Assembly: GCF_000039765.1 (NCBI RefSeq)
Contig: NC_004459.3
Location: 2,601,127-2,633,126 of the forward strand
Source: Vibrio vulnificus CMCP6
GTDB taxonomy: Bacteria > Pseudomonadota > Gammaproteobacteria > Enterobacterales > Vibrionaceae
Length of the DNA: 32,000 nt
Direction: 5' to 3'
Shown here: positions 7,533 to 28,084 of the stretch, one piece after another
Layout of the letters: each line of letters begins with the position of its first letter
Numbering within the stretch: the first letter of the stretch is position 1
Position numbers and translations under genes: made by a program
The notes under the pieces: model-generated
Seen by the model: the letters and a program-made list of their open reading frames with translations, nothing else
The model's database searches: none
Told to the model about the DNA's origin: nothing

Positions 7533-9311
7533 CTAGATTCTGCCTTGAAGTGGAATAATTGTCACGCTTTCTCCCGTTTTTACGCTATCCACCGCGGGAG
7601 AAATTTCAATCAAGCAGTTGGCTTCACTCATCGAACGCAAAATGCCAGAGCCTTGTTTCCCAGTCGTGCGAACGGTTAGGCGGCCAGTTTCATCCAATTC
7701 ATAGACACCACGGCTAAACTCCGTGCGGCCTTGGCGAGAACGCAAATCTTCTTTGGCAATCGCACTGACTTTCAATGGCTTCCAGCCTAGCTCGCCTTGC
7801 ATTTTACGTACCGCAGGCTCAACAAAGTTGATGAATGATACCATCACGGCAACAGGGTTGCCCGGCAGGCCAAAAAACGGTTTTTCATTGATCTGACCAA
7901 ATGCTAATGGGCGCCCAGGACGCATATTGATGCGCCAGAAATCAATTTGTCCGAGCTTGTCGAGAGCCAGTTTGATGTAGTCGGCATCGCCAACGGACAC
8001 GCCACCCGAAGTAATGACCACATCCGCTTGCTGCGCTGCGCTTTCTAGTGCGTCGATCATCGATTGCTCGTTGTCTTCTAGAATGCCGAAGTCCAAGATG
8101 TCACAGCCGAGCTTCTCAAGCATGCCCATAATGGTAAAACGGTTTGAATCGTAGATAGAGTTCGCTTTCTGTTCTGTACCAGGCGCTTGAACTTCGTCGC
8201 CGGTGGAGAAGACTGCCACTTTCAACTTACGTAATACATTGGCTTGTGCAAAACCAAGAGAAGCCATCATGCCCATTTCAGGTGAGGCGAGGCGAGTCCC
8301 TGCGGTAAACACGCTACTGCCGATGGTTAAGTCTTCACCCGCTTGGCGTACGTTTTGTCCGGCTTTGATGTTGGCACCATTGAAAGTGACCTTGTCACCG
8401 TCTTGATGCGCTTGCTCACGCATGACCACCGTATCTCCGTTGATGGGCGTTGGCGCACCGGTCATGATTTTGACCGCTTGCCCCAATTCTAACAGGTGTT
8501 CGTAGTGGTAACCGGCCAGCACTTCAGCCACGATCTGGTAACTTTCTCGCTGTAAGTCATCACTTCGAATGGCGTATCCATCCATCGCTGAGTTGGTGTA
8601 TTGCGGTACATTCACCGGAGAAATCACGTCGTGAGCCAGCACGCGCCCATAGGTGTGTTGTATCGGGCACGATTCAATATCACCCACAGTAGAGACGAGG
8701 GAGAGAATTTTCTCTTGCCCTTGGGCAACAGAAAGAAACGCCGGAGAAAGCGTATCGCAACATGCGGCAGGTGCATTTTGCGTGGCCACTTGCTGATGTT
8801 GGTGAACATAATCGAGGACAAATTGGCAAATCGCATCCAGATCATTGATGTTGAGTTGGGGCAGTGCGCTTTCTAACGGGCCACTGTCTGAAGCGATGGC
8901 AATAATGTTCTCATCATTAGGGTACAACCACGGTTTTCCGACTTCTTCACGATGCAATTCGATTTTGGGAAACGCAATGTTCTTGCAGCCTTCGACCAAA
9001 ATGACGTCAATCGTTTGCTGATCAAAGCGGCTAAGCAGGTAATCAAATTCCGATTCAGCCTCAGGGGTTTCTGTCATCAAGGCAAAACGATTTCTCGAAG
9101 CAATCAGCATTTGTGAGGCACCCGCTTTGCGTAAGCGGTAGCTGTCTTTACCTGGTTTATCGACGTCAAAATCATGATGAGCGTGTTTCAGTAACCCAAT
9201 TCGCAGACCTGCTGCGGTCAATTTTGGCAACAAGGCTTCCAGTAGGGTGGTTTTTCCTGTGCCTGAATAAGCAGCAAAGCCAAGTAAAGGCAAAGTGATG
9301 GTGTTTCTCAT
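7533..9311 (-). CDS. moeA: fused MobB (MGD-biosynthesis adaptor, P-loop) / MoeA (molybdopterin metal-insertase) protein
   Basis: 592 aa. Residues 1-170 align with E. coli MobB ([36 protein letters not shown]). After a short linker ([16 protein letters not shown]), the rest is MoeA-like ([26 protein letters not shown]). The ATG overlaps the mobA stop (ATGA). Confidence 0.9.
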
Positions 9312-9895
9312 GATTCTAGTTGTCCAAATTGGGTGAGTTCTTCAGGCGTGTTGAGGTTGACGAAACAGTCTGGAGAATCACTAAAATCCACATACTGTGT
9401 GTGACACTCTTTGTAGAGTAAGATGATTTTACGGTCACCGCGTTCTAAAAACGCCGTCAGTTTAGGCAAAACACGTTTGTGATACAGGGTAAAAACAGGT
9501 TGCTGATGATTGCCATCATGGGCAACCAAAATGTCGGTTTCATCCGTCACAGCACGACAAAAGCGCTCCACCAAGTCTTCATTGATACGGGGGCAGTCAC
9601 AAGGAACAAAACCAACCCAATCGGTACTCGCGTGCAGTAATCCGGCATGAATGCCGCCCATAGGACCAGGGAAATTTTGAAAATGATCGCCAAACACGGG
9701 ACCATATTGTTGGTAATCATCCTGATTGCGGTTGGCATTGATCAGAATGTTTGAAGTTTGCGGCGTTAGCCGGTCAATGACGTACTCAATCAACGGCTTA
9801 TTATTTAAGGCGATTAAGCCTTTGTCTTTACCGCCCATTCGGCTAGCTTGGCCGCCAGCTAAAATAACCCAACTAGTGAGTGTTGGTTGTAGCAT
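9308..9895 (-). CDS. mobA: molybdenum cofactor guanylyltransferase MobA
   Basis: [27 protein letters not shown] matches the MobA N-terminal LAGGxxxRMGG-DKG motif. I chose ATG 9895 by alignment with the E. coli MobA N-terminus; the ORF track start is 9931. The gene overlaps the tupC 3' end by 23 nt. Confidence 0.85.
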
Positions 9896-10592
9896 AGGTA
9901 TTCTCTTGGGATAACTCTTTTGTAATGACATACAAGAGTGGCGACTCTACCAGAGTATTGTTTTTGATCCACCACTGTTTTTTACACAAATCGGTAAGCG
10001 CGTTGGTTTGATGGCTCGTGACCACAATGCTGGAACCTCTCGCTAATAAATCTTGCGCTAACACCACTAAACGCTCGATCGACTCTTGATCAACCGACGC
10101 GCTGGGTTCATCCATCAGCAAGATTGAAGGTTTTAGGATCCAAGCCCTGGCCATCGCAACCCGTTGACGCTCACCACCAGACAGCACAGACACATGCTCA
10201 TCGGCTAAGGTTTCTAAGCCTACCATACGCAGCGCGTGAATCACTTCGGCTCGTTTCTCCTTTGTGCTGCCACCATCATATTTGATGCCGTAAAGGACAT
10301 TTTCATAGACGGAACCATCAAAAAGATAAGGGGACTGATGAAGATAAACAACATCACGACGGCCCAATGAAGGAAACCAGTGGCGAAGCCAGCCATTATT
10401 TTGCGCACACACTTTACCGCTCGTCGGATGCACCAAACCAGCCAAGATCTTCAACAAGGTCGTTTTGCCTACACCATTGTCCCCCTTGAGGTAAATGGCA
10501 TCGTTAGGGCCGATTTGAAGTTGAGGAATGTGAAACAGCACTCGCTCTTTAAAGCGCATGGAAAGATCTCGAGCGGTAATTTTAATCGTCAT
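9873..10592 (-). CDS. tupC: ABC transporter ATP-binding protein (TupC-like)
   Basis: Walker [10 protein letters not shown], signature [12 protein letters not shown], Walker B LLMDEP. The true start is ATG 10592 ([10 protein letters not shown]...), 8 nt after the tupB stop and preceded by GGAAG. The 366-aa track ORF carries a spurious N-terminal extension that overlaps tupB. Confidence 0.75.
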
Positions 10593-10600
10593 ATCACTTC

Positions 10601-11299
10601 CTAAGTTCGCAAATAGCCTTTGCCACGCATACTCGACAGCAAAAAATTCAACACGAGTGCCAAGGTGAGCAGCACAATACCAAGCGCAACACCTTGAGCA
10701 AAGGCGCCCTTGTGGCTCTCCATTGAAATCGCGGTGGGGATGTTTCGCGTCAAACCCATAATGTTCCCACCAACCATCATTGAACAACCCACTTCGGTCA
10801 CAATTCGAGAAAAACCGGTAATGGTGGCCGCCATAAGAGGAAAACGGGTTTCCCAAATCATCGTCCCACTTAATCTTGGCAGAGACACACCAAGGGTTAA
10901 TGCGGTTTCTAACGCGCGGCGATCGCTCGATTGCAACGCGCCATACATCATCGAAACCAACACAGGAAAACAAATCAGCATTTGCCCGAGGATCATCGCT
11001 TTTTGGGTGAACAGCATCTGCCAGTCACCGAGCGGACCTGATCGCGAGAGGAACATGTAAAGCAGCAAACCAATCACCACCGTGGGTACCGATTGCAACG
11101 TGTTCACAAATGAAACCAACAGCCACTTGCCGCGAAAATTGGTGTAGGCGAGGAGAAAAGACAAAAAAGTCGCAGGCAACAGCACCAACAATATGGCAGT
11201 AAGAGAAACGCTAAAGGAGACCGCAACGATCTCCCATAGTTCTTTGTCTAAGCTAAACAGTAAGGCAAAAGCCTCTTGTGTTGTTTGCCAAAGGCTCAT
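10601..11299 (-). CDS. tupB: ABC transporter permease (TupB-like)
   Basis: 232 aa with about 5-6 TM segments, lying between the binding-protein and ATPase genes with 6-nt and 8-nt gaps. Confidence 0.75.
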   Translation of the reverse strand: MSLWQTTQEAFALLFSLDKELWEIVAVSFSVSLTAILLVLLPATFLSFLLAYTNFRGKWLLVSFVNTLQSVPTVVIGLLLYMFLSRSGPLGDWQMLFTQKAMILGQMLICFPVLVSMMYGALQSSDRRALETALTLGVSLPRLSGTMIWETRFPLMAATITGFSRIVTEVGCSMMVGGNIMGLTRNIPTAISMESHKGAFAQGVALGIVLLTLALVLNFLLSSMRGKGYLRT

Positions 11300-11305
11300 T
11301 GATGA

Positions 11306-12124
11306 CTACTTCTGATCTGCATTTGCCACAAACAGTTGCTTGCCATTTAAGCGGAAGCTGTTGATCAGCTCTTGACCACGAGGATTGACCAACCAGTCAC
11401 TGAATGCTTTGGCGCCCTGATAATTGATGCTCGGGTAGCGCTCTGGATTGACCAAAATCACTTGGTACGGGTTGAAGAGTTTTTGATCACCTTCGAACAG
11501 TACCGCAAGATCCAACTTGTTGTTGTAAGCCAGCCAAGTGCCACGGTCTGTTAACGTGTAACCTTGCATTTCTGACGCCATGTTCAGCGTTGGCCCCATA
11601 CCTTGACCCACTGAGCGATAGCCGCCGAAGTTGGGTTCCATCTTGGTTTGAGCCCAAATACCCAGTTCTTTCTTGTGCGTACCCGAATCATCGCCACGTG
11701 AGATAAAGGTGACATTGTTGTCCGCGATGGCTTTAAACACCTCAAGTACGCTGTTGTCTTGAGCAACTTTCGCTGGATCTGCTTTTGGTCCCACGACGAT
11801 AAAGTCGTTGTACATTAGCTTGCGAGGTAACACTCCGTAGCCTTTTTCGACAAAGGTCGCTTCGGCTTTCGGAGCATGCGTCATCACCAAATCCACATCG
11901 CCATTTTCACCCATTTTCAGTGATTTACCTGTCCCTGCGGCCAGCACATCCACTTTATAACCGGTGTCTTTTTCGAATTCAGGCAGTAGGTAATCAAGCA
12001 GGCCAGAGTGATAAGTACTGGTCGTGGTTGCCAAACGCACACGGTGAACATCATCGGCAGAGAAAGAGGAGAAACTCACCAGCGTAATCGACGTTGCCGC
12101 CAAAGTAAGAGCTACTTTGTTCAT
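11306..12124 (-). CDS. tupA: periplasmic tungstate/molybdate-binding protein, TupA type
   Basis: 272 aa with a signal peptide (…SFSSFSA). The N-terminal RLATTTSTYHSGLLDYLLPEFEK contains the TTTS anion-binding motif characteristic of TupA-family proteins, and AAGTGKSLKMGENGDVD is TupA-like. Confidence 0.8.
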   Translation of the reverse strand: MNKVALTLAATSITLVSFSSFSADDVHRVRLATTTSTYHSGLLDYLLPEFEKDTGYKVDVLAAGTGKSLKMGENGDVDLVMTHAPKAEATFVEKGYGVLPRKLMYNDFIVVGPKADPAKVAQDNSVLEVFKAIADNNVTFISRGDDSGTHKKELGIWAQTKMEPNFGGYRSVGQGMGPTLNMASEMQGYTLTDRGTWLAYNNKLDLAVLFEGDQKLFNPYQVILVNPERYPSINYQGAKAFSDWLVNPRGQELINSFRLNGKQLFVANADQK

Positions 12125-12233
12125 TGTATTTTTATTCCTTCAAATCATTCTTGGGCAAATAGGCCGTTGCAGTTAAGCACACTGACACACAAACCGCGTC
12201 ACCACTCGGTCAAACCTCATCGGCTAGCGCTGT

Positions 12234-12249
12234 TGGATATCAGTTTGCA
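12234..12249 (+). promoter_or_regulatory. weak sigma-54-like -24/-12 element facing the regulator gene
   Basis: TGGATA-TCAGT-TTGCA. The GG and GC are correctly spaced but there are three mismatches in the -24 hexamer. It lies face-to-face with the stronger minus-strand element. Confidence 0.3.
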
Positions 12250-12266
12250 ATTGCATATAGTCCTAT

Positions 12267-12282
12267 TGCAAACAAGATGCCA
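12267..12282 (-). promoter_or_regulatory. sigma-54 (-24/-12) promoter of the tupABC-mobA-mobB::moeA operon
   Basis: The minus strand reads TGGCAT-CTTGT-TTGCA against the consensus TGGCAC-N5-TTGCW (one mismatch). It lies about 140 nt upstream of the tupA ATG. Confidence 0.65.
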
Positions 12283-12351
12283 ACAAAACACCAGCACTAA
12301 ATTGAGAAAATAAGCTTTATATCATGCAGTTAAACAGTCAATAGTTTGATG

Positions 12352-12368
12352 TGAGACAAAATGTCGCA
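12352..12368. promoter_or_regulatory. 17-bp dyad, candidate enhancer (UAS) for the sigma-54 activator
   Basis: TGAGACAAAATGTCGCA. The centre is about 80 bp upstream of the tupA -24 element. It is near-identical to the sites at 25270-25286 and 25331-25347, and it lies 20 nt upstream of the regulator's ATG 12388. Confidence 0.55.
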
Positions 12369-12387
12369 CATTTTATAAGGAGATTTA

Positions 12388-13893
12388 ATGATTCATTGGT
12401 ACACTATGTCCTATACGTCATTCTGTCTCGAGGAAAGTATGTCTATTCAATTGGATCCCAACTCCGTATCTCAATACCAAGCGTTTTCCGTGTTAGTCGT
12501 CGATGATGAAGTCGGCATGCAGGCCATTTTGAAAAAAGCGCTGGGTAAATGGTTTTCAAAAGTGGATGCGGTAGGCAGTATCGAACAGGCTGAAAAGCTC
12601 AGAGTGACCAACCATTACGACCTAATTGTTCTCGACATCAATTTGCCCGGGCGTTCGGGCATCGAATGGGAAGAAGCCTTCAATGATCCCGAGCGAAAAG
12701 CCGATGTCATCTTTATGACCGGATATGCCGATCTCGAAACCGCCATTACAGCGCTGAAACTGGGCGCGACGGATTTTATTCTTAAGCCGTTTAATCTCGA
12801 TCAGATGCTGCAAGCGGTAAAACGCTGTATGGATCGTCGCCTTAATGCACGCATGCAATATGCGCTCAAACGAGATTATCAACGCAATCATATTTCTGAA
12901 ATGGTTGGGAACTCCGACAAAACCCGCCAGCTAAAGCACATGGTTACACAGTTTGCCCCGTCAAAAGCGTGTGTGCTGATTGAAGGGGAGTCTGGCACTG
13001 GTAAAGAACTGGTGGCTCGTGGTGTTCATCTGGCCAGCGGTAGAACCGGTCCTTTTGTGCCATTAAACTGTGGCGCGATTGCTCCTGAACTGTTGGAAAG
13101 TGAGCTGTTTGGTCATACTTCCGGCGCGTTTACGGGGGCGAAAAAAGCACGTGAAGGGCTTTTCCGCGTTGCCATCGGCGGCACATTATTCCTCGATGAG
13201 ATTGGTGAGATGCCACTGGCGATGCAATCGTCTTTGTTGCGAGTGCTAGAGCAACGCAGTATTCGCCCTGTTGGTAGTGAAAAAGAAATTCCAGTCGATG
13301 TACGCGTGGTCGCGGCAACCAATCGCGATTTACAGCAAGAAGTCGAAAAAGGGCGCTTTCGTAAAGATCTCTATTACCGACTCAACGTGCTGAAAATTGA
13401 AGTACCGCCGCTGCGAGAAAGAAAGGCCGATTTGCAAGAGTTGGTGCCATTCTTCACTAAACAGCTCTCAAGCGAGCTTGCTATGTCTGCCCCGCAATGG
13501 GCGCATGAAGACATCGAAGCCATGCATGATTACAGCTGGCCAGGTAACGTACGTGAGCTACGCAATCTGATTGAACGTTGTATTCTCCTTGGCAAACCAC
13601 CAGCGCATTACTGGCGTGAACTGAATGGATCTATGAACCTGCCAAACGTTTCAATCACCGTTTCTCACAGTGCTGAAGTGCCAACTTTTAAAGAAGGGAA
13701 GAAAGAATTCACCGGTGTTGGCTACCCCAATGATTGGACATTAAAAGAGGTGGAAAAGGCCCATATCCAACAAGTGGTGCACTATTACGATGGCAATAAA
13801 TCGGCGGCATCGCGTGATCTTGGCGTGGCACGCAAAACGTTGGAGCGCAAATACAAAGAGTGGGAAACCGAGGAAGCGGATTATGCAGAGTGA
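12388..13893 (+). CDS. NtrC-family sigma-54-dependent response regulator (REC-AAA+-Fis HTH)
   Basis: Receiver domain (VLVVDDE ... [13 protein letters not shown]). AAA+ domain with Walker A GESGTGKE and the sigma-54 contact loop GAFTGA. C-terminal HTH ([19 protein letters not shown]). ATG 12388 has AAGGAG 6 nt upstream; the alternative start ATG 12439 also has GAGGAAAG. Confidence 0.9.
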
Positions 13894-15916
13894 TCAAACA
13901 CTTTGGTCAACTTGGCGCTATCGCTTTAAAAGTATGGTGCGCTATCGGTTGCTGTTTCTAACCTCAGCGCCGATTTTCCTCACCTTGATTGCACTGATTG
14001 GCATCTCTGTCTATTGGTCGATCCATTACACTTGGAGCAGTGCACTGATTGATGTTTCTGAACGCCTTGGGGTTGCCAATAACAGCATTACGCTATTGCA
14101 ACAGAAGCAGGCTAATTACGTTAAAGCCTTTGCTGAAAGCTATCAGTTTCGCACTCGTATCAATCAGCCAATGGATCAAGACGATCTTCAGCAATGGGTA
14201 CATAAACAGAAAAAGCAATATCAGCTCGATTTTCTCGCTTTTCATCGTGTCGACACCATAGAGCAAAAATTTCGTTTTCTCGATTTAACCAAACGAGAAT
14301 CCTTTTTTGATGTGTTGAGCGAAACGGAGTTACAACGTCTTGATCCAGACTTGGCCAAGCGCGCCGAAGTGCCGATTTTAAAAACGGGCAAAATTGAAAC
14401 GCGTGGCCTCATCAGCCGCACTGTGATTCCAGTGTTTAACCAAAGTAATGATCTGATTGGTTTTCTAGATGGCGGGTTACTACTTAACAACAGCACCGTG
14501 CTCGTCGACCAAATCCGCGACTTGATTTACATCGGAGATGAGGATTCTCTCAGGCCGATCGGTACCGTGACGCTGTTTATGGAAGATCTCCGCGTCAGCA
14601 CCAATGTACCACTAGACAGCGAAGATCAGATTGGCCGTGCGATCGGTACTCGGGTTTCTGGTGAAGTGCATAAATCGGTATTGCAGCAAGGAGAGCGTTG
14701 GGTTAATCGCGCCTTTGTGTATGACGCTTGGTATATCACCGCCTATCAACCCATTCGCGACCAATACAACAACACCATCGGCATGCTCTACACCGGCTAT
14801 TTGATGTGGCCATTTGTTAAAGCGTATCTTACCAACATAGTGGAAATCAGCGTTATTACCTTAACCTTGCTGGTGGTCTCTGGGCTTTTGGTTTATAGAG
14901 GCTCGCGGGATCTTTTCCGTCCTATTGAACGCATTCATAAAGTGGTGAAATTGGTGCAACTGGGCAAAGACAAGCGGATTGGTGCGTTAGGGCTAGATGA
15001 AAACCACGAGCTGGCGCAATTGGCCAAACAGTTTGACAACATGCTCGATCTGCTCAAAACGCGTGAAGAGCAAATCAAACAAGCGGCCAATGAACTGGAG
15101 CAAAAAGTGTTGGATCGCACAGCCAGCCTCAATGAAAAAACCGAGCAGCTTGAGCACCACATTCGATTACTCAATCAAACTCGCGACAAACTGGTCGTCA
15201 ATGAAAAGCTGGCGGCCTTGGGCGAGTTAACCGCGGGTATCGCCCATGAGATTAACAACCCAACCGCCGTGATACTGGGTAACGTCGAGTTGATTCGTTT
15301 TGAGCTCGGTGAAGATGCCGCGCGCGTAGAGGAAGAGATAGAAACGGTGATGGCGCAGATCGACCGAATTCGTAACATCACGCGAAGTTTGCTGCAATAC
15401 AGCCGACAGGGCGGGGTGCAAGATGAGATCATTTGGCAGCATGTCAATCCTATCATCGAAGAGAGCATTACCTTGGTCAAAACTGGCTCTAAAAAACGCA
15501 CCATCGAATTCGTTACTGAGCTCAATGCGCATACGTCCGTTGAAGTGAATCGCCATCAACTGTTACAGATTTTGGTTAACTTACAAATGAACGCCATCCA
15601 TGCAATGAACGGTGAAGGGCGATTGAGCATCACCAGTGAAGATTGGTTGGAAGAAGGGGAAAGCGTGGGTGCGGTCATCCACATTGAAGATCAAGGTTGC
15701 GGCATTAAGCCCGAAAAACTGAGCCGAATATTTGACCCGTTTTACACCACCAAGCGTGATGGAACCGGCCTTGGTCTTTCTGTTAGCCAGAGTTTGCTTA
15801 GCCAATCAGGCGGGGAGATCAAAGTGCGTTCACAACTGGGGATTGGCAGCACGTTTAGCGTCTATCTCCCAAGAAAGAACGAAGCCAAACTGCGTGATAC
15901 CTTGCTGATTCAATAA
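13883..15916 (+). CDS. sensor histidine kinase with a roughly 265-aa periplasmic (Cache/PDC-like) domain, HAMP, HisKA and HATPase
   Basis: Start ATG 13883 (MQSDQTLW...) overlaps the regulator stop by 11 nt; the track start 13790 is rejected. Two TM segments bracket the periplasmic domain (...RAFVYDAWYITAYQPIRDQYNNTIGMLYTGY). H-box AGIAHEINNP, N-box NLQMNAIHAM, G-boxes DQGCGI and GTGLGLS. Confidence 0.9.
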   Translation: MQSDQTLWSTWRYRFKSMVRYRLLFLTSAPIFLTLIALIGISVYWSIHYTWSSALIDVSERLGVANNSITLLQQKQANYVKAFAESYQFRTRINQPMDQDDLQQWVHKQKKQYQLDFLAFHRVDTIEQKFRFLDLTKRESFFDVLSETELQRLDPDLAKRAEVPILKTGKIETRGLISRTVIPVFNQSNDLIGFLDGGLLLNNSTVLVDQIRDLIYIGDEDSLRPIGTVTLFMEDLRVSTNVPLDSEDQIGRAIGTRVSGEVHKSVLQQGERWVNRAFVYDAWYITAYQPIRDQYNNTIGMLYTGYLMWPFVKAYLTNIVEISVITLTLLVVSGLLVYRGSRDLFRPIERIHKVVKLVQLGKDKRIGALGLDENHELAQLAKQFDNMLDLLKTREEQIKQAANELEQKVLDRTASLNEKTEQLEHHIRLLNQTRDKLVVNEKLAALGELTAGIAHEINNPTAVILGNVELIRFELGEDAARVEEEIETVMAQIDRIRNITRSLLQYSRQGGVQDEIIWQHVNPIIEESITLVKTGSKKRTIEFVTELNAHTSVEVNRHQLLQILVNLQMNAIHAMNGEGRLSITSEDWLEEGESVGAVIHIEDQGCGIKPEKLSRIFDPFYTTKRDGTGLGLSVSQSLLSQSGGEIKVRSQLGIGSTFSVYLPRKNEAKLRDTLLIQ

Positions 15917-16001: not shown

Positions 16002-16883
16002 TTATTGACCGCTGAATGCAATTCTCGGTGGTTTGATGCCGTGTTTCTTAAACTCTTTCATTACACGCAAAGTAATGTCGGATTCAAACAGTTTTTCATA
16101 AGCAGTATCCACCACGTAGGCTTTGCAGGTTAACTGGATAGCCAAATAGTTGTCCGTGATCGTCTGTTTCACCAGTACCACCACCGGTTTCGGCAGGTGG
16201 ATGTAACGGCTAGACGAAGCCGCTTCCTGAATCAACTCACGCGCGAGCACAATATCTTCATCCATACCGACATAGAAGGGGATCACCACCTGCATGTCGA
16301 GTGCGCCATAGTTTCCACTGACCGTCACTTCATTGAGAAACTTGTTGTTCGGAATGGTAATGATGTCATCGGTCAGTGTTCTCATTCGCACAGAACGAAG
16401 GCCAATCGCGATGATGTCACCATAGTTGCCTTCGAACGTGACGCGGTCACCCACCTGAAACGGGCGATCAATCATCACCGTCAATCCGGCAATAAAAGAC
16501 GCGGCCAAGTCTTTCAACGCAAAACCAACCGACACCGCCAACGTACCACCAATTAAGGCTAAGATATGGTCGTTGATGCGAAAGCTCATCATAAACACCA
16601 CAAGGCCAGCGGTTAAGTAGATGAAGAACTGTAAGAACGATTGGGTTTTCTGCAACAGCATTCGATACTGCGCAAACTGGCCGCCAATGCTCTCTACCAT
16701 TGAATTCATGAACTTCAACAGTAGCCAAGTAATGGCGATGATGATGACAGAGAAGAACACACCGCTCCAGCGGATCAAGCTGGCAAATTGCTGAATGTTT
16801 TCCATATTGGCGATTTCTTCCGTCGCGAAGGCCGGTGCCGAGATCAAAGCCGCGGCGAATAGCGCGTAGAGTTTCTTATTCAT
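16002..16883 (-). CDS. MscS-family mechanosensitive channel protein (small, with N-terminal signal-like sequence)
   Basis: 293 aa. MNKKLYALFAAALISAPAFA is signal-like. Three TM segments are followed by the MscS pore/beta-domain signature (GGTLAVSVGFALKDLAASFIAGLTVMIDRPFQVGDRV...IPNNKF). The ATG lies 1 nt after the stop of the upstream gene. Confidence 0.85.
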   Translation of the reverse strand: MNKKLYALFAAALISAPAFATEEIANMENIQQFASLIRWSGVFFSVIIIAITWLLLKFMNSMVESIGGQFAQYRMLLQKTQSFLQFFIYLTAGLVVFMMSFRINDHILALIGGTLAVSVGFALKDLAASFIAGLTVMIDRPFQVGDRVTFEGNYGDIIAIGLRSVRMRTLTDDIITIPNNKFLNEVTVSGNYGALDMQVVIPFYVGMDEDIVLARELIQEAASSSRYIHLPKPVVVLVKQTITDNYLAIQLTCKAYVVDTAYEKLFESDITLRVMKEFKKHGIKPPRIAFSGQ

Positions 16884-16884
16884 A

Positions 16885-19254
16885 TTACTTCACCAGCAAA
16901 TGTTGACGATCGAGAACGTTGGTAATGTAGCGGAACCAATGGTCCGAGACGCGAGCTTTATCCTCATTCCAAGCAATAAAGCCACGGCTTTCAAAGAAAC
17001 GAAGTGTACCAATCACTTCAGCGATGCTGAGCTGAGTACACTCGGAGAGCTCTTCGGGAGAGGCCACTTCAAGCTGTACAATTGAACGTAACACCGCCAG
17101 CATCGGTTTAGGCATCTGCTCCAACTCTTTGGATTCCGGCGCATGGAACAAGCGCACCACGACACTATCAGACTCTTTATTGCGTCTTAACGACAAGCGG
17201 AAGAATCGCAGCGCCACTGTTGGGTTACCATCGGAGTAGTGCCACAAAATTCGGTAGAAGCCTTGTTTGGCTCGTTCTTCCTCAGAAGTCTCTTCTTGAT
17301 CCCACTGCTTAGGCACCACAAGGCCATCAAAGCTCAGCGGATTTTCAATATCCTGATTTACGCGGCTATCGAGTAAGGCAGAGATCTGTTTTTCATTCCA
17401 ACGAGGCAAAAAGGAGACCCAATCAAACAGCAGTCGCTCGCCACGAGCGCGATCGACAAAACGCCAGCTTGCTTTCTCAATCGCCATCACAACGCGGTGA
17501 TTTTGTTTAGATCGGCGCAGCAGGTTCGTCAGCTTCATCAGTCCGGCTAAACCACCAACCATGGGCTTCACCAAACGTTGTGCGTTATCAACTGCGATGA
17601 GATACGGCGTTTCACTTTTACGCAAGAACGCTAAAATTTGCACTTCTGTCGACTCTTCTGCCAACCCTAATCCTGTCGCCAACTGTTTCAACAGCTCTGG
17701 GTAACCATCGTAAGGGCAGTTAAGGTAAAGCGGCGTGGCGTTTTTCACTTTGCCAAGTATTTTCTTCAATACCGATGTGGTACCCACACCACGCTCACCT
17801 GACAACACACAAATCGCGGGGCTATCGGTCAACAAATAGCGAGAGAGGTTTTGAATTTCGTCACTGGCGTAGTCAATCCACTCGCTGTCTTGCTGCGGAG
17901 GCAACACATATTGAAATGCCGCATCACCACGAATGCGCACCAGTGAGTCGTTGCCGTCTCGGTTGCTGGTTTGCTTAGCCACTTCGATACGGAAGAGGTA
18001 AGCCAGTGCCTGACTGAACATGGTGTAGTTTGAGAGAGTCGCAATAATGCGATGTTTAAAGTGATGGCTAATCAGCCATACCGCCGAGATTGCGGTTGCT
18101 GGAATATTGAGAATAAAGCTATCTTGGCGTTTGATTGCCCACTGTACCCAGACTGGACGCTCCGTGATGCGATCAACCACTTCAAACACTTTTTTACGCC
18201 ACAGACGCAAAACGGATACAGTGACCAGAACGAACCAGAAGTACAGTGCGCTGTAGATCCAATAGTAAATGGTCCCTTTACCAAGAGTACGAACGGAGAT
18301 TTGTAAAATCACGCCAGCAACAATCGCACTCCACACATAACGTCGAATCGTGGCAAGGCGAAGCGCCACCACGTCTTTACTGGAACTGCGGCTATTGCGA
18401 TAAGCAAATTCAAGAATAAAGCTAATGGCGATGGAACCGCCTAAGATCCACCAAGTGAAGATCTCTAGATACACCAGATGTTGCAAACTCGGCAACTCGG
18501 CCAAAATACGCAAAGAAAGCGTAATCGCCACTAACCAAGCAATAGCGCGGTTTGCGCGGCTGAAGTACCAAATCAAACGCACCCAAAGAGTCGGCGCGTT
18601 GTTGTTATCAAGCTGGCTTTCACGAAACAACGTGATGATGCGTTTGCTGTTCGCCATCCACCACACCAACAGCAAGTACACGGCAAACACTTTCAACCCG
18701 GTCCAAATAACAGGCACTGGGGAAATAAAGGTATTTTTAATCAGAGCGCGAAAGCTTCTTATCTGAAAATGGACCAAATACTCGAGATTCAACTTCGTCA
18801 GTATCAGCTCTTGGCGAAACTGCGTCACGCCATAAGGGCCAAACCCCGTCAACTGCTCTTTGGTCGCGCTATCTGTCAATTGCAACAGCTTGGCCTTGCT
18901 ACTGCCTAAGCTATTGAGGGTGAGGTATTGATTCTCTACCGTTTGCCAATGCTCAGCTGTCGGCGTTTGGCGATATTGCTCGAGCAAACGTTTGAAGGCG
19001 TCACCTTCAGACTTTTGCATGGCGATAACAGCGGTGAGCATTTGATTCACCTTCACCTGATCTTTGGCGCTCATAAAGAGCGGGTCAGGCAATCGGGCTA
19101 AATCAGACTCAACGCTGAGTGCTTGGGCGTTGATCTGAGGTGGTGTCTGTGCAGCATATTGCCATTGGGCAAAGGATGCAGGCGCAAACAGCAGGGTAAA
19201 ACAAACGAATAGACGTAATATTTTTGGCATAAGTTGATCGTAATCTTTAGACAT
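16885..19254 (-). CDS. 789-aa membrane protein of unknown function: signal peptide, periplasmic helical region, multi-TM block, cytoplasmic degenerate P-loop NTPase-like domain, C-terminal winged-helix-like tail
   Basis: Long uninterrupted ORF. N-terminus ...LFVCFTLLFAPASFAQ, with about 6 hydrophobic segments between residues 180-400. The Walker-A-like GERGVGTTS lacks the Lys, and the Walker-B-like YLIAVDNAQ has DN instead of DE. The start is either 19254 or ATG 19230; neither has a strong RBS. Confidence 0.7.
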   Translation of the reverse strand: MSKDYDQLMPKILRLFVCFTLLFAPASFAQWQYAAQTPPQINAQALSVESDLARLPDPLFMSAKDQVKVNQMLTAVIAMQKSEGDAFKRLLEQYRQTPTAEHWQTVENQYLTLNSLGSSKAKLLQLTDSATKEQLTGFGPYGVTQFRQELILTKLNLEYLVHFQIRSFRALIKNTFISPVPVIWTGLKVFAVYLLLVWWMANSKRIITLFRESQLDNNNAPTLWVRLIWYFSRANRAIAWLVAITLSLRILAELPSLQHLVYLEIFTWWILGGSIAISFILEFAYRNSRSSSKDVVALRLATIRRYVWSAIVAGVILQISVRTLGKGTIYYWIYSALYFWFVLVTVSVLRLWRKKVFEVVDRITERPVWVQWAIKRQDSFILNIPATAISAVWLISHHFKHRIIATLSNYTMFSQALAYLFRIEVAKQTSNRDGNDSLVRIRGDAAFQYVLPPQQDSEWIDYASDEIQNLSRYLLTDSPAICVLSGERGVGTTSVLKKILGKVKNATPLYLNCPYDGYPELLKQLATGLGLAEESTEVQILAFLRKSETPYLIAVDNAQRLVKPMVGGLAGLMKLTNLLRRSKQNHRVVMAIEKASWRFVDRARGERLLFDWVSFLPRWNEKQISALLDSRVNQDIENPLSFDGLVVPKQWDQEETSEEERAKQGFYRILWHYSDGNPTVALRFFRLSLRRNKESDSVVVRLFHAPESKELEQMPKPMLAVLRSIVQLEVASPEELSECTQLSIAEVIGTLRFFESRGFIAWNEDKARVSDHWFRYITNVLDRQHLLVK

Positions 19255-24056: not shown

Positions 24057-24072
24057 AGCAATTACCGTTCCA
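24057..24072 (-). promoter_or_regulatory. sigma-54 (-24/-12) promoter upstream of fdhD
   Basis: The minus strand reads TGGAAC-GGTAA-TTGCT (one mismatch to TGGCAC-N5-TTGCW). It lies about 85 nt upstream of the fdhD GTG. Confidence 0.6.
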
Positions 24073-24140: not shown

Positions 24141-24156
24141 TGGCTTAGAATTTGCT
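24141..24156 (+). promoter_or_regulatory. sigma-54 (-24/-12) promoter upstream of the DUF3305/DUF3306-like genes
   Basis: TGGCTT-AGAAT-TTGCT, with correct GG/GC spacing. It lies about 100 nt upstream of ATG 24256. Confidence 0.6.
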
Positions 24157-24714: not shown

Positions 24715-25291
24715 TTTTTTCTCTCGCTGGTCCTCTCGTAAGTTAGCGGGAGATAGGCAAAAGCAGCCAAAACAAAGCGATGAAGATATCGCAGCGCACT
24801 CGTCGCTCACCGATGAGCAGAAAAACGCTGTCGAAGAAGACCGCGCATTACTCTCGAACCAGACAAGTGGCAAAAAAGAGGGTGCTGATGAGCAGACGGA
24901 GCAAGAACCTACTATTTCAGCGCTGTTGGCCAGTGAAGCGACGCAAGAAGTAAAAAAAGCGGCACTGCGTAAGCTTTTCCACAGTGAAGAGTTTAACGTG
25001 GTTGATAGGCTCAATGATTACGATCACGACTATAAGTCTTCTATTGGTGCTCTCGCACCCAATGTGGCGCAGACGTTAAGAGAATGGATGAAGCCAGTAG
25101 AGAAAGCGTTGACTGAGGCCGAGCCAGAAAGTGCACCTTGCACATTGGATGGTTCAGTAGCCGTTGATAACGATGAAAGTATTGAGGCGAACAGTGACAC
25201 GCTAACGCAATCTGAGACTCAAGCCCTGACTTTATCTCAATCCGATCTTCCTGCAAATGAAACGCTAGATGAGACAAAATATCCCACATAA
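24704..25291 (+). CDS. FDH-cluster protein of unknown function (DUF3306-like, from memory)
   Basis: GTG start overlapping the previous gene by 11 nt. The N-terminal FFSRWSSRKL motif is followed by an acidic, Gln/Glu-rich low-complexity region. 195 aa. Confidence 0.65.
   Translation: MATDFFSRWSSRKLAGDRQKQPKQSDEDIAAHSSLTDEQKNAVEEDRALLSNQTSGKKEGADEQTEQEPTISALLASEATQEVKKAALRKLFHSEEFNVVDRLNDYDHDYKSSIGALAPNVAQTLREWMKPVEKALTEAEPESAPCTLDGSVAVDNDESIEANSDTLTQSETQALTLSQSDLPANETLDETKYPT
25270..25286. promoter_or_regulatory. 17-bp dyad (distal candidate UAS), embedded in the last codons of the DUF3306-like gene
   Basis: TGAGACAAAATATCCCA. With flanks it matches the tup-region site TGAGACAAAATGTCGCACAT at 18 of 20 positions. 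It lies 61 bp centre-to-centre from the proximal site. Confidence 0.5.
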
Positions 25292-25321
25292 AAAATAGGT
25301 ACATTTTGACGCGGGATGGGA

Positions 25322-25356
25322 AAATTCAATTGGGACAAAATGTCCCAATTGAATTT
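25322..25356. promoter_or_regulatory. perfect 16+16 bp palindrome (proximal candidate UAS / RNA hairpin)
   Basis: AAATTCAATTGGGACA-aaa-TGTCCCAATTGAATTT. The core TGGGACAAAATGTCCCA (25331-25347) matches the shared dyad. The centre is about 90 bp upstream of the -24 element at 25428. Confidence 0.6.
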
Positions 25357-25427: not shown

Positions 25428-25443
25428 TGGTATAGCACTTGCT
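25428..25443 (+). promoter_or_regulatory. sigma-54 (-24/-12) promoter of the Fe-S / chaperone / FDH structural genes
   Basis: TGGTAT-AGCAC-TTGCT, with correct GG/GC spacing. It lies about 80 nt upstream of ATG 25521. Confidence 0.65.
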
Positions 25444-27809: not shown

Positions 27810-27871
27810 CCAAGCGATCTCTTTTAGAGAGGCTTAAGCCTCCAAAAATCTACCTGACAGGTAAGGAAGCA

Positions 27872-28072
27872 ATGATGAAAGAAAAAAATGAGATTAACGA
27901 AAGCCGTCGTGACCTTTTGAAAGGTATCGCCACGGCAGCAGTAGCAGGCGCCGTCGTTGCTGGCACCACACAAGTGGCCTCAGCCTCAGAAGTTACTCCT
28001 GTAGAAAAACAGGCGAAGAAAAAGGGATATCACGAAACTCAGCATATCCGCGACTATTACGAAACTCTGTAG
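27872..28072 (+). CDS. 66-aa twin-arginine-signal peptide/protein of FDH loci (formate dehydrogenase region TAT target type)
   Basis: Strong RBS AAGGAAG. Tat motif SRRDLLKG, hydrophobic h-region and an ASA cleavage-like site leave a mature part of about 30 aa (SEVTPVEKQAKKKGYHETQHIRDYYETL). Confidence 0.8.
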   Translation: MMKEKNEINESRRDLLKGIATAAVAGAVVAGTTQVASASEVTPVEKQAKKKGYHETQHIRDYYETL

Positions 28073-28084
28073 GAGCCATCGTCA

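Follow-up and report, generated by a model that had tools for sequence, protein, structure and literature searches.

The stretch of DNA analysed in this work (32,000 nt, referred to below as the window) comes from chromosome I of Vibrio vulnificus, and the TupA protein that it encodes is identical in V. vulnificus genomes, including YJ016 chromosome I (BA000037.2). On its minus strand the window carries tupA (11306..12124), which encodes a periplasmic tungstate-binding protein, followed by the rest of the operon (7533..11299), i.e., tupB (10601-11299), tupC (9873-10592), mobA (9308-9931), and a mobB-moeA fusion (7533-9311). TupA is the best-matching NCBIfam model for the tupA product, with a score of 246.7 that lies below the cut-off of 400, and the metal specificity is thus a predicted one. 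The protein also matches solved TupA structures (PDB 3LR1, E 2e-73; 5MY5, E 1e-67), and its translation contains, within ATTTSTY, the TTTS string described as the TupA signature (PMC4139814). Divergent from tupA, on the plus strand, are the genes of an NtrC/AtoC-type response regulator (12439..13893, assigned by Pfam and NCBIfam) and of its partner, a sensor histidine kinase with a periplasmic sCache_3 domain (13883..15916, assigned by Pfam). The intergenic region between tupA and the regulator gene spans 12125-12438 (314 bp).

The regulator is composed of a receiver domain (PF00072), an AAA+ sigma-54 interaction domain (PF00158, E 1e-68), and an HTH_8 domain (PF02954), and the GAFTGA motif is found in its translation. 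Its NCBIfam scores fall below the cut-offs of both AtoC (379.9 bits, cut-off 714) and NtrC (370.3 bits, cut-off 558.6), and as judged by these scores it is a member of an orthologous group distinct from the AtoC and NtrC equivalogs. Start codons differ among V. vulnificus annotations (window 12388-12441 and 13790-13885), giving a regulator of 501 or 484 aa and a kinase of 708 or 677 aa. The start at 12439 is the most likely one for the regulator, given the length of its orthologues (483-484 aa) and the GAGGA ribosome-binding site ahead of the second ATG; the kinase is 677 aa in most V. vulnificus gene calls, and its start at 13883 overlaps the end of the regulator gene. A PDB search with the kinase sensor domain matched the catalytic core alone and yielded no ligand clue, and no literature assigning a function to VC1521/VC1522 or their orthologues was found.

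About 10 kb beyond the two-component genes the window carries fdhD on the minus strand and, on the plus strand near it, a DUF3305 gene, a DUF3306-like ORF, and genes for a polyferredoxin, a TorD-like chaperone, and the alpha and beta subunits of an FDH3-type formate dehydrogenase. The fdhA gene is an uninterrupted ORF of 951 codons, and the enzyme encoded in the window therefore has no in-frame TGA selenocysteine codon. A 276-bp gap separates the TorD-like gene from fdhA (window 27810-28084), and a 66-aa ORF is called at this place in V. alginolyticus (L087). The stretch from the two-component genes to the fdh cluster contains, at 16002-19254, a conserved pair encoding an MscS-family channel and a 789-aa membrane protein with an AAA_22 ATPase domain (without an NCBIfam family), which occupies the same place in several Vibrio species (L001, L088-L092, L094); the pair is encoded on the opposite strand, and no sigma-54 site of at least 10 bits is associated with it.

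For comparison we collected the tupA-regulator intergenic regions of 15 species besides V. vulnificus, namely ten Vibrio, two Photobacterium, Shewanella frigidimarina, Aeromonas salmonicida, and Thiothrix lacustris. A search of genome contigs with the pattern FLDEIGEM was swamped by generic sigma-54 activators because the pattern is common to the whole family, so that only about 10 of 80 loci were true orthologues, and further Vibrio loci were added separately. The gene order moeA/mobB-mobA-tupCBA, divergent from regulator-kinase, is kept across these loci, fdhD or fdh genes are found inside the retrieved flanks of most of them, and the regulator stays adjacent to tup/mob and fdh genes from Vibrio to Thiothrix. 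The intergenic regions of the 16 species cannot be aligned apart from a few blocks.

The central feature of the 314-bp region is a sigma-54 promoter, TGGCATCTTGTTTGCA, on the minus strand at 12267..12282. As the earlier note had reported, it reads TGGCAT-CTTGT-TTGCA from 12282 to 12267, one mismatch from TGGCAC-N5-TTGCW; the -24 GG is located at 12281-12280 and the -12 GC at 12269-12268, from which a transcription start near 12256 is expected. The invariant GG and GC are 10 nt apart, as the sigma-54 class requires, and the distance to the tupA ATG, put earlier at about 140 nt, is 142 nt by our measurement. In V. cholerae, 35 of 37 RpoN promoters are found within 250 bp of their gene (PMC3439928). 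The pattern TGGCAY-N5-TTGCW is present on the tupA strand in all 16 species from Vibrio to Thiothrix, one copy in each, with scores of 13.9-17.3 bits, and the promoter-to-ATG distance ranges from 55 to 372 nt. The upper value belongs to Vibrio nigripulchritudo (L093, 9422-10000), where the leader of 372 nt (55-164 nt elsewhere) suggests an insertion or an extra element.

For scoring we derived a sigma-54 matrix from 33 V. cholerae RpoN sites that have both ChIP-seq and RNA-seq support (PMC3439928), leaving out the four sites of the orthologous cluster; the training sites themselves have a median score of 16.2 bits, and the weakest scores 7.9 bits. Among the approximately 64,000 positions scanned in the window, the four highest scores are all intergenic: 24058(-) with 16.8 bits, 24141(+) with 15.3, 12268(-) with 15.0, and 25428(+) with 13.5. 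The tupA promoter, third in rank, is thus far above chance. The earlier note had proposed such a scan, and had held that hits of similar score at comparable density in coding sequence would speak against its two elements. No coding position in the window reaches 14 bits, and the minus-strand element withstands this comparison; the plus-strand element discussed below does not, as 22 positions score 8 bits or more and 14 of them are coding.

The pattern counted in the earlier note, TGG-N9-TTGCW, is a slip for TGG-N8-TTGCW and is not enriched (4 matches, 3.5 expected), whereas the corrected pattern has 10 matches in the window against 3.8 expected, a number reached by 1 of 100 shuffles. The enrichment that had been claimed for intergenic DNA is real, although the matches there number six (12234+, 12267-, 23118+, 24057-, 24141+, and 25428+) instead of five, and the non-coding DNA amounts to about 4.1 kb by the gene map used here instead of about 2.1 kb. 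The enrichment is accounted for by four conserved promoters. The dinucleotide pair GG-N10-GC by itself is uninformative as a signal (206 matches, 206 expected).

The orthologous promoter in V. cholerae, that of VC1523-27, is bound by RpoN in ChIP-seq and is RpoN-dependent in RNA-seq, with an induction of 2.1-5.7-fold (Dong & Mekalanos 2012, PMC3439928). Taken with the matrix score and the conservation in 16 of 16 species, this precedent bears out the assignment of the minus-strand element as the sigma-54 promoter of tupABC-mobA-mobB/moeA. From its sequence and from the V. cholerae orthologue, we conclude that the element is a genuine and widely conserved sigma-54 promoter. The earlier note had called it unusual for oxyanion uptake and cofactor genes to be under sigma-54 control; this does not hold, since the same operon was found to be RpoN-bound and RpoN-dependent in V. 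cholerae in 2012 (PMC3439928); sigma-54 control of the tungstate-uptake and cofactor operon is not new, being known through that orthologue. A literature search on sigma-54 control of tupA in other organisms returned nothing specific.

The 142-nt leader between promoter and tupA was also considered as a possible riboswitch. Neither the leader nor any other part of the window contains a riboswitch or other Rfam family at gathering thresholds, Rfam gives noise alone at E<=10, and the leader varies among V. vulnificus strains; this candidate was rejected.

The plus strand of the same region contains a second sigma-54-like string, TGGATATCAGTTTGCA, at 12234..12249, which reads TGGATA-TCAGT-TTGCA as had been quoted earlier. 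It has the GG-N10-GC spacing and the TTGCA box of the tupA promoter, and its -24 box is TGGATA. In the earlier note it was taken as a second sigma-54 promoter, serving the regulator gene and facing that of tupA, such that the overlapping starts would make the two holoenzymes mutually exclusive and set transporter and regulator expression against each other. The shared spacing and -12 boxes are consistent with that arrangement, the plus-strand score of 7.9 bits equals that of the weakest training site, and by arithmetic the starts do cross (about 12260 on the plus strand, about 12256 on the minus strand). However, a score of 7.9 bits ranks 24th in the window and is at background, with 22 positions at 8 bits or above, 14 of them in coding sequence. 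In the 15 other species plus-strand scores do not exceed 6.4 bits, and most of these weak matches simply mirror the real promoter. Two of the six V. vulnificus strains compared, L084 (CP014049.2) and L086, have CACTGTCAGTTTGCA in place of TGGATATCAGTTTGCA and so lack the essential GG, whose box reads TGGATA in YJ016, and the string is therefore not conserved even within the species; from 12238 rightward the sequence of these two strains is nearly invariant despite the lost plus-strand GG. Table 2 of the V. cholerae study (PMC3439928), which gives the operons that RpoN binds and that depend on it, does not contain the regulator operon VC1522-21, and an activator site serving the plus-strand start would fall about 90-110 nt downstream of it. 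On this evidence two facing sigma-54 promoters are highly improbable, and competition between them for occupancy is unsupported. The TGGATA-N5-TTGCA string is best described as a fortuitous, strain-variable weak match with no conserved role, as indicated by the matrix and by the cross-species comparison.

The same string could alternatively form part of a sigma-70 promoter of the regulator gene, with TGGATA as -35 hexamer, a 16-nt spacer, TATAGT as -10 hexamer, and a start near 12268. It is the sole sigma-70-like site in 12000-12500 by consensus scan, matching 9 of 12 positions, but the shuffles lead one to expect 1.3 such matches, both hexamers are changed in L084 and L086 (to CACTGT and TATGGC), and the site is not conserved in other species. 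Being no better than shuffles and not conserved, the sigma-70 promoter was dismissed as quite unlikely.

In L084 and L086 the tupA 5' leader (window 12180-12237, alignment columns 56-113) is strongly divergent and includes a 2-nt deletion, and from 12238 to the regulator gene all six V. vulnificus sequences are nearly identical. The boundary, which lies just left of the inverted repeat described next, could be a recombination breakpoint.

The 9-bp inverted repeat that the earlier note had described, GTTTGCAAT-N13-ATTGCAAAC, is perfect and spans 12243..12273, with arms at 12243-12251 and 12265-12273; if tupA transcription starts at about 12256, it covers the promoter from the -12 box to about +14. 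It is the repeat that creates the '-12 box' of the plus-strand string. The folding energy of the repeat as single-stranded DNA is -7.8 kcal/mol (z = -2.45). An RNA hairpin of the tupA transcript was rejected as an explanation of the repeat, since just one arm would be transcribed from the sigma-54 start; a T-run 3' of the repeat is absent. The repeat could instead be an operator extending from -12 to +14 for a V. vulnificus-specific dimeric DNA-binding protein, which would block the closed or open complex, veto enhancer-dependent activation, and add a second input to tupA (e.g., metal or quorum status), and the plus-strand string would then be a by-product. Consistent with an operator, the repeat, which is perfect, occurs nowhere else in the window, and the chance that 314 nt contain one or more perfect 9-bp repeats with a loop of 3-20 nt is P ~0.026; between the window and five other V. 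vulnificus strains neither arm changes and the spacer has two substitutions, while the leader just downstream diverges strongly. The invariant arms beside the diverging leader leave room for an extra species-specific control element. In addition, a V. cholerae AphA ChIP-seq peak with the motif caagtcgtagtgatgctcac is found inside VC1522, beside the VC1522<>VC1523 intergenic region (PMC6855506). Against an operator, the repeat is absent from all other species examined, the whole of 12238-12438 is nearly invariant within V. vulnificus so that the invariance of the arms is not distinctive, and no candidate binding protein was found. The AphA consensus ATGCAA-N4-TTGCAT has no match with three or fewer mismatches in 12125-12438, and caagtcgtagtgatgctcac itself is a poor match to this consensus; an AphA operator was therefore rejected in spite of the V. 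cholerae peak near the orthologous locus. We regard an operator at the repeat as unlikely; if there were one, V. vulnificus would have gained a lineage-specific second input into tungstate uptake and cofactor synthesis.

Upstream of the tupA promoter, the dyad that had been noticed near 12352-12368 is present as a palindrome, TGTGAGACAAAATGTCGCACA / TGnGACAAAATGTCnCA, at 12350..12370, with its centre about 80 bp upstream of the -24 GG, and is a conserved upstream site that we predict to be the activator site. Its exact 11-mer core, GACAAAATGTC, occurs in the 32 kb at just two places, 12355-12365 and 25334-25344, both upstream of sigma-54 promoters; two weaker copies of the core are found, one in the last part of the DUF3306-like ORF at 25273-25283 and one at 25300-25310. 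Fourteen of the 16 species have an exact GACA-N3-TGTC, V. alginolyticus has a copy with one mismatch, and Thiothrix has none; from the -24 box upstream to the centre of the copy nearest the promoter the distance is about 67-137 bp. The same palindrome is located upstream of the fdh promoter in all six sequences compared (the window and five loci), and the combined consensus is approximately TGnGACAAAWTGTCnCA.

The adjacent NtrC-type regulator likely binds this palindrome, as suggested by co-occurrence and adjacency: the protein is an enhancer-binding protein and a kept neighbour of these genes, and the palindrome lies at the classical enhancer distance. Between the activator site and the promoter, at 12320..12332, is an IHF-like site, TATCATGCAGTTA, whose function is predicted and which matches WATCAANNNNTTR at 12 of 13 positions. 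IHF-like matches are found on the same strand at -50 from TGG in V. alginolyticus and V. paucivorans, and on the opposite strand at -47 to -52 in V. plantisponsor, Vibrio sp. Y2-5, and both Photobacterium species; such matches are about 8-fold enriched in the promoter-activator spacers relative to the whole window. The earlier proposal of an IHF site at 12320-12332, between promoter and dyad, is plausible in view of the 12/13 match and the partial positional conservation.

The three other high-scoring promoters of the window all belong to the formate dehydrogenase cluster. The fdhD promoter, TGGAACGGTAATTGC (24058..24072, minus strand), is the highest-scoring site of all and is conserved in six other loci. 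Its divergent neighbour, TGGCTTAGAATTTGC (24141..24155, plus strand), serves the DUF3305/DUF3306 genes, ranks second, and is likewise conserved; the two stand back to back, 68 bp apart in the window (73-160 bp in six other loci). A full activator palindrome was not found between them, and half-site-like strings alone are present in the window and the six loci. The promoter of the formate dehydrogenase operon, TGGTATAGCACTTGC (25428..25442, plus strand), is fourth in rank and also conserved. Ninety bp upstream of it is a 35-bp perfect palindrome, AAATTCAATTGGGACAAAATGTCCCAATTGAATTT (25322..25356), which contains the activator-site core (GGGACAAAATGTCCC) and whose arms reach well past the conserved core. 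The orthologues are VC1519 for fdhD, VC1518-17 for the DUF3305/3306 pair, and VC1516-10 for the fdh operon, and in V. cholerae all three have RpoN peaks in ChIP-seq and RpoN-dependent expression, VC1516-10 being induced 22-69-fold by RpoN (PMC3439928).

Taken together, these observations make it probable that the 314-bp region contains one enhancer-dependent sigma-54 promoter, driven by the divergently encoded regulator through the palindrome, and that the same regulator runs a regulon of tup, molybdenum cofactor, and fdh genes. By analogy with the RpoN ChIP signal at the V. cholerae orthologue, sigma-54 RNA polymerase would bind the -24/-12 boxes as a closed complex. The sCache_3 histidine kinase is expected to phosphorylate the NtrC/AtoC-type response regulator, and the signal, at a guess, may be formate or some other cue connected with the anaerobic oxidation of formate. 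The regulator would bind TGnGACAAAATGTCnCA about 80 bp upstream of the promoter, an IHF-type bend at 12320-12332 probably aiding its contact with the polymerase, and ATP hydrolysis by the regulator would open the promoter. Promoter opening by ATP hydrolysis is established for NtrC-type activators. The same regulator most likely drives the fdhD, DUF3305/3306, and fdh-operon promoters too, which would unite tungstate uptake, cofactor maturation, and periplasmic formate dehydrogenase in a single regulon; that the fdhD and DUF3305/3306 promoters have half-site-like strings in place of a full palindrome speaks against it. Sigma-54 control of these three functions has been shown experimentally in V. 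cholerae alone; the present analysis extends it to V. vulnificus and, as the conservation indicates, to Photobacterium, Shewanella, Aeromonas, and Thiothrix. What is modestly new is a testable assignment of an orphan NtrC-type two-component system (the VC1521/VC1522 orthologues) to TGnGACAAAATGTCnCA upstream of the tupA and fdh promoters.

The closest known system is the V. cholerae VC1523-27 operon (PMC3439928), which is alike in its content (an ABC transporter and molybdopterin synthesis genes), in its divergent NtrC-type regulator, in its promoter, which is nearly the same (TGGCATCCCATTTGC versus TGGCATCTTGTTTGC), and in its three companion promoters (fdh, fdhD, and a hypothetical pair). 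It differs in that the V. vulnificus promoter is known from sequence alone and has a species-specific inverted repeat over its -12 box. The V. cholerae RpoN study assigned neither an activator nor its site to VC1523-27 (PMC3439928). The arrangement also resembles promoters of the NtrC/glnAp2 and AtoSC type in the GG-N10-GC spacing, the palindrome about 80-140 bp upstream with an IHF-like site between, and the use of a two-component response regulator with a GAFTGA AAA+ domain as activator. AtoC and AtoS are the best NCBIfam matches of the regulator and the kinase, yet no score reaches the equivalog cut-off of AtoC, AtoS, or NtrC. Where those systems control nitrogen or acetoacetate genes, the V. 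vulnificus targets are genes for tungstate uptake, the molybdenum cofactor, and formate dehydrogenase, and the sensor has an sCache_3 domain.

In E. coli, the formate hydrogenlyase genes are under the control of sigma-54 and a dedicated activator, FhlA, which is a one-component activator with a formate-binding GAF domain. The V. vulnificus genes are similar in that a formate-oxidising enzyme is placed under sigma-54 and a dedicated activator, but the latter is predicted to be a phosphorylated response regulator with a membrane kinase, it scores 242.7 bits with the FhlA model against a cut-off of 830, and the enzyme is a periplasmic FDH3-type formate dehydrogenase.

A variant arrangement of the locus is found in Vibrio albus (L005), L008, and L009, where tupABC is absent and mobA is directly divergent from the regulator gene. 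Upstream of mobA neither a sigma-54 site nor the palindrome was detected in L005 and L009 at the thresholds used, and L008 carries both a 14.6-bit sigma-54 site and the palindrome there.
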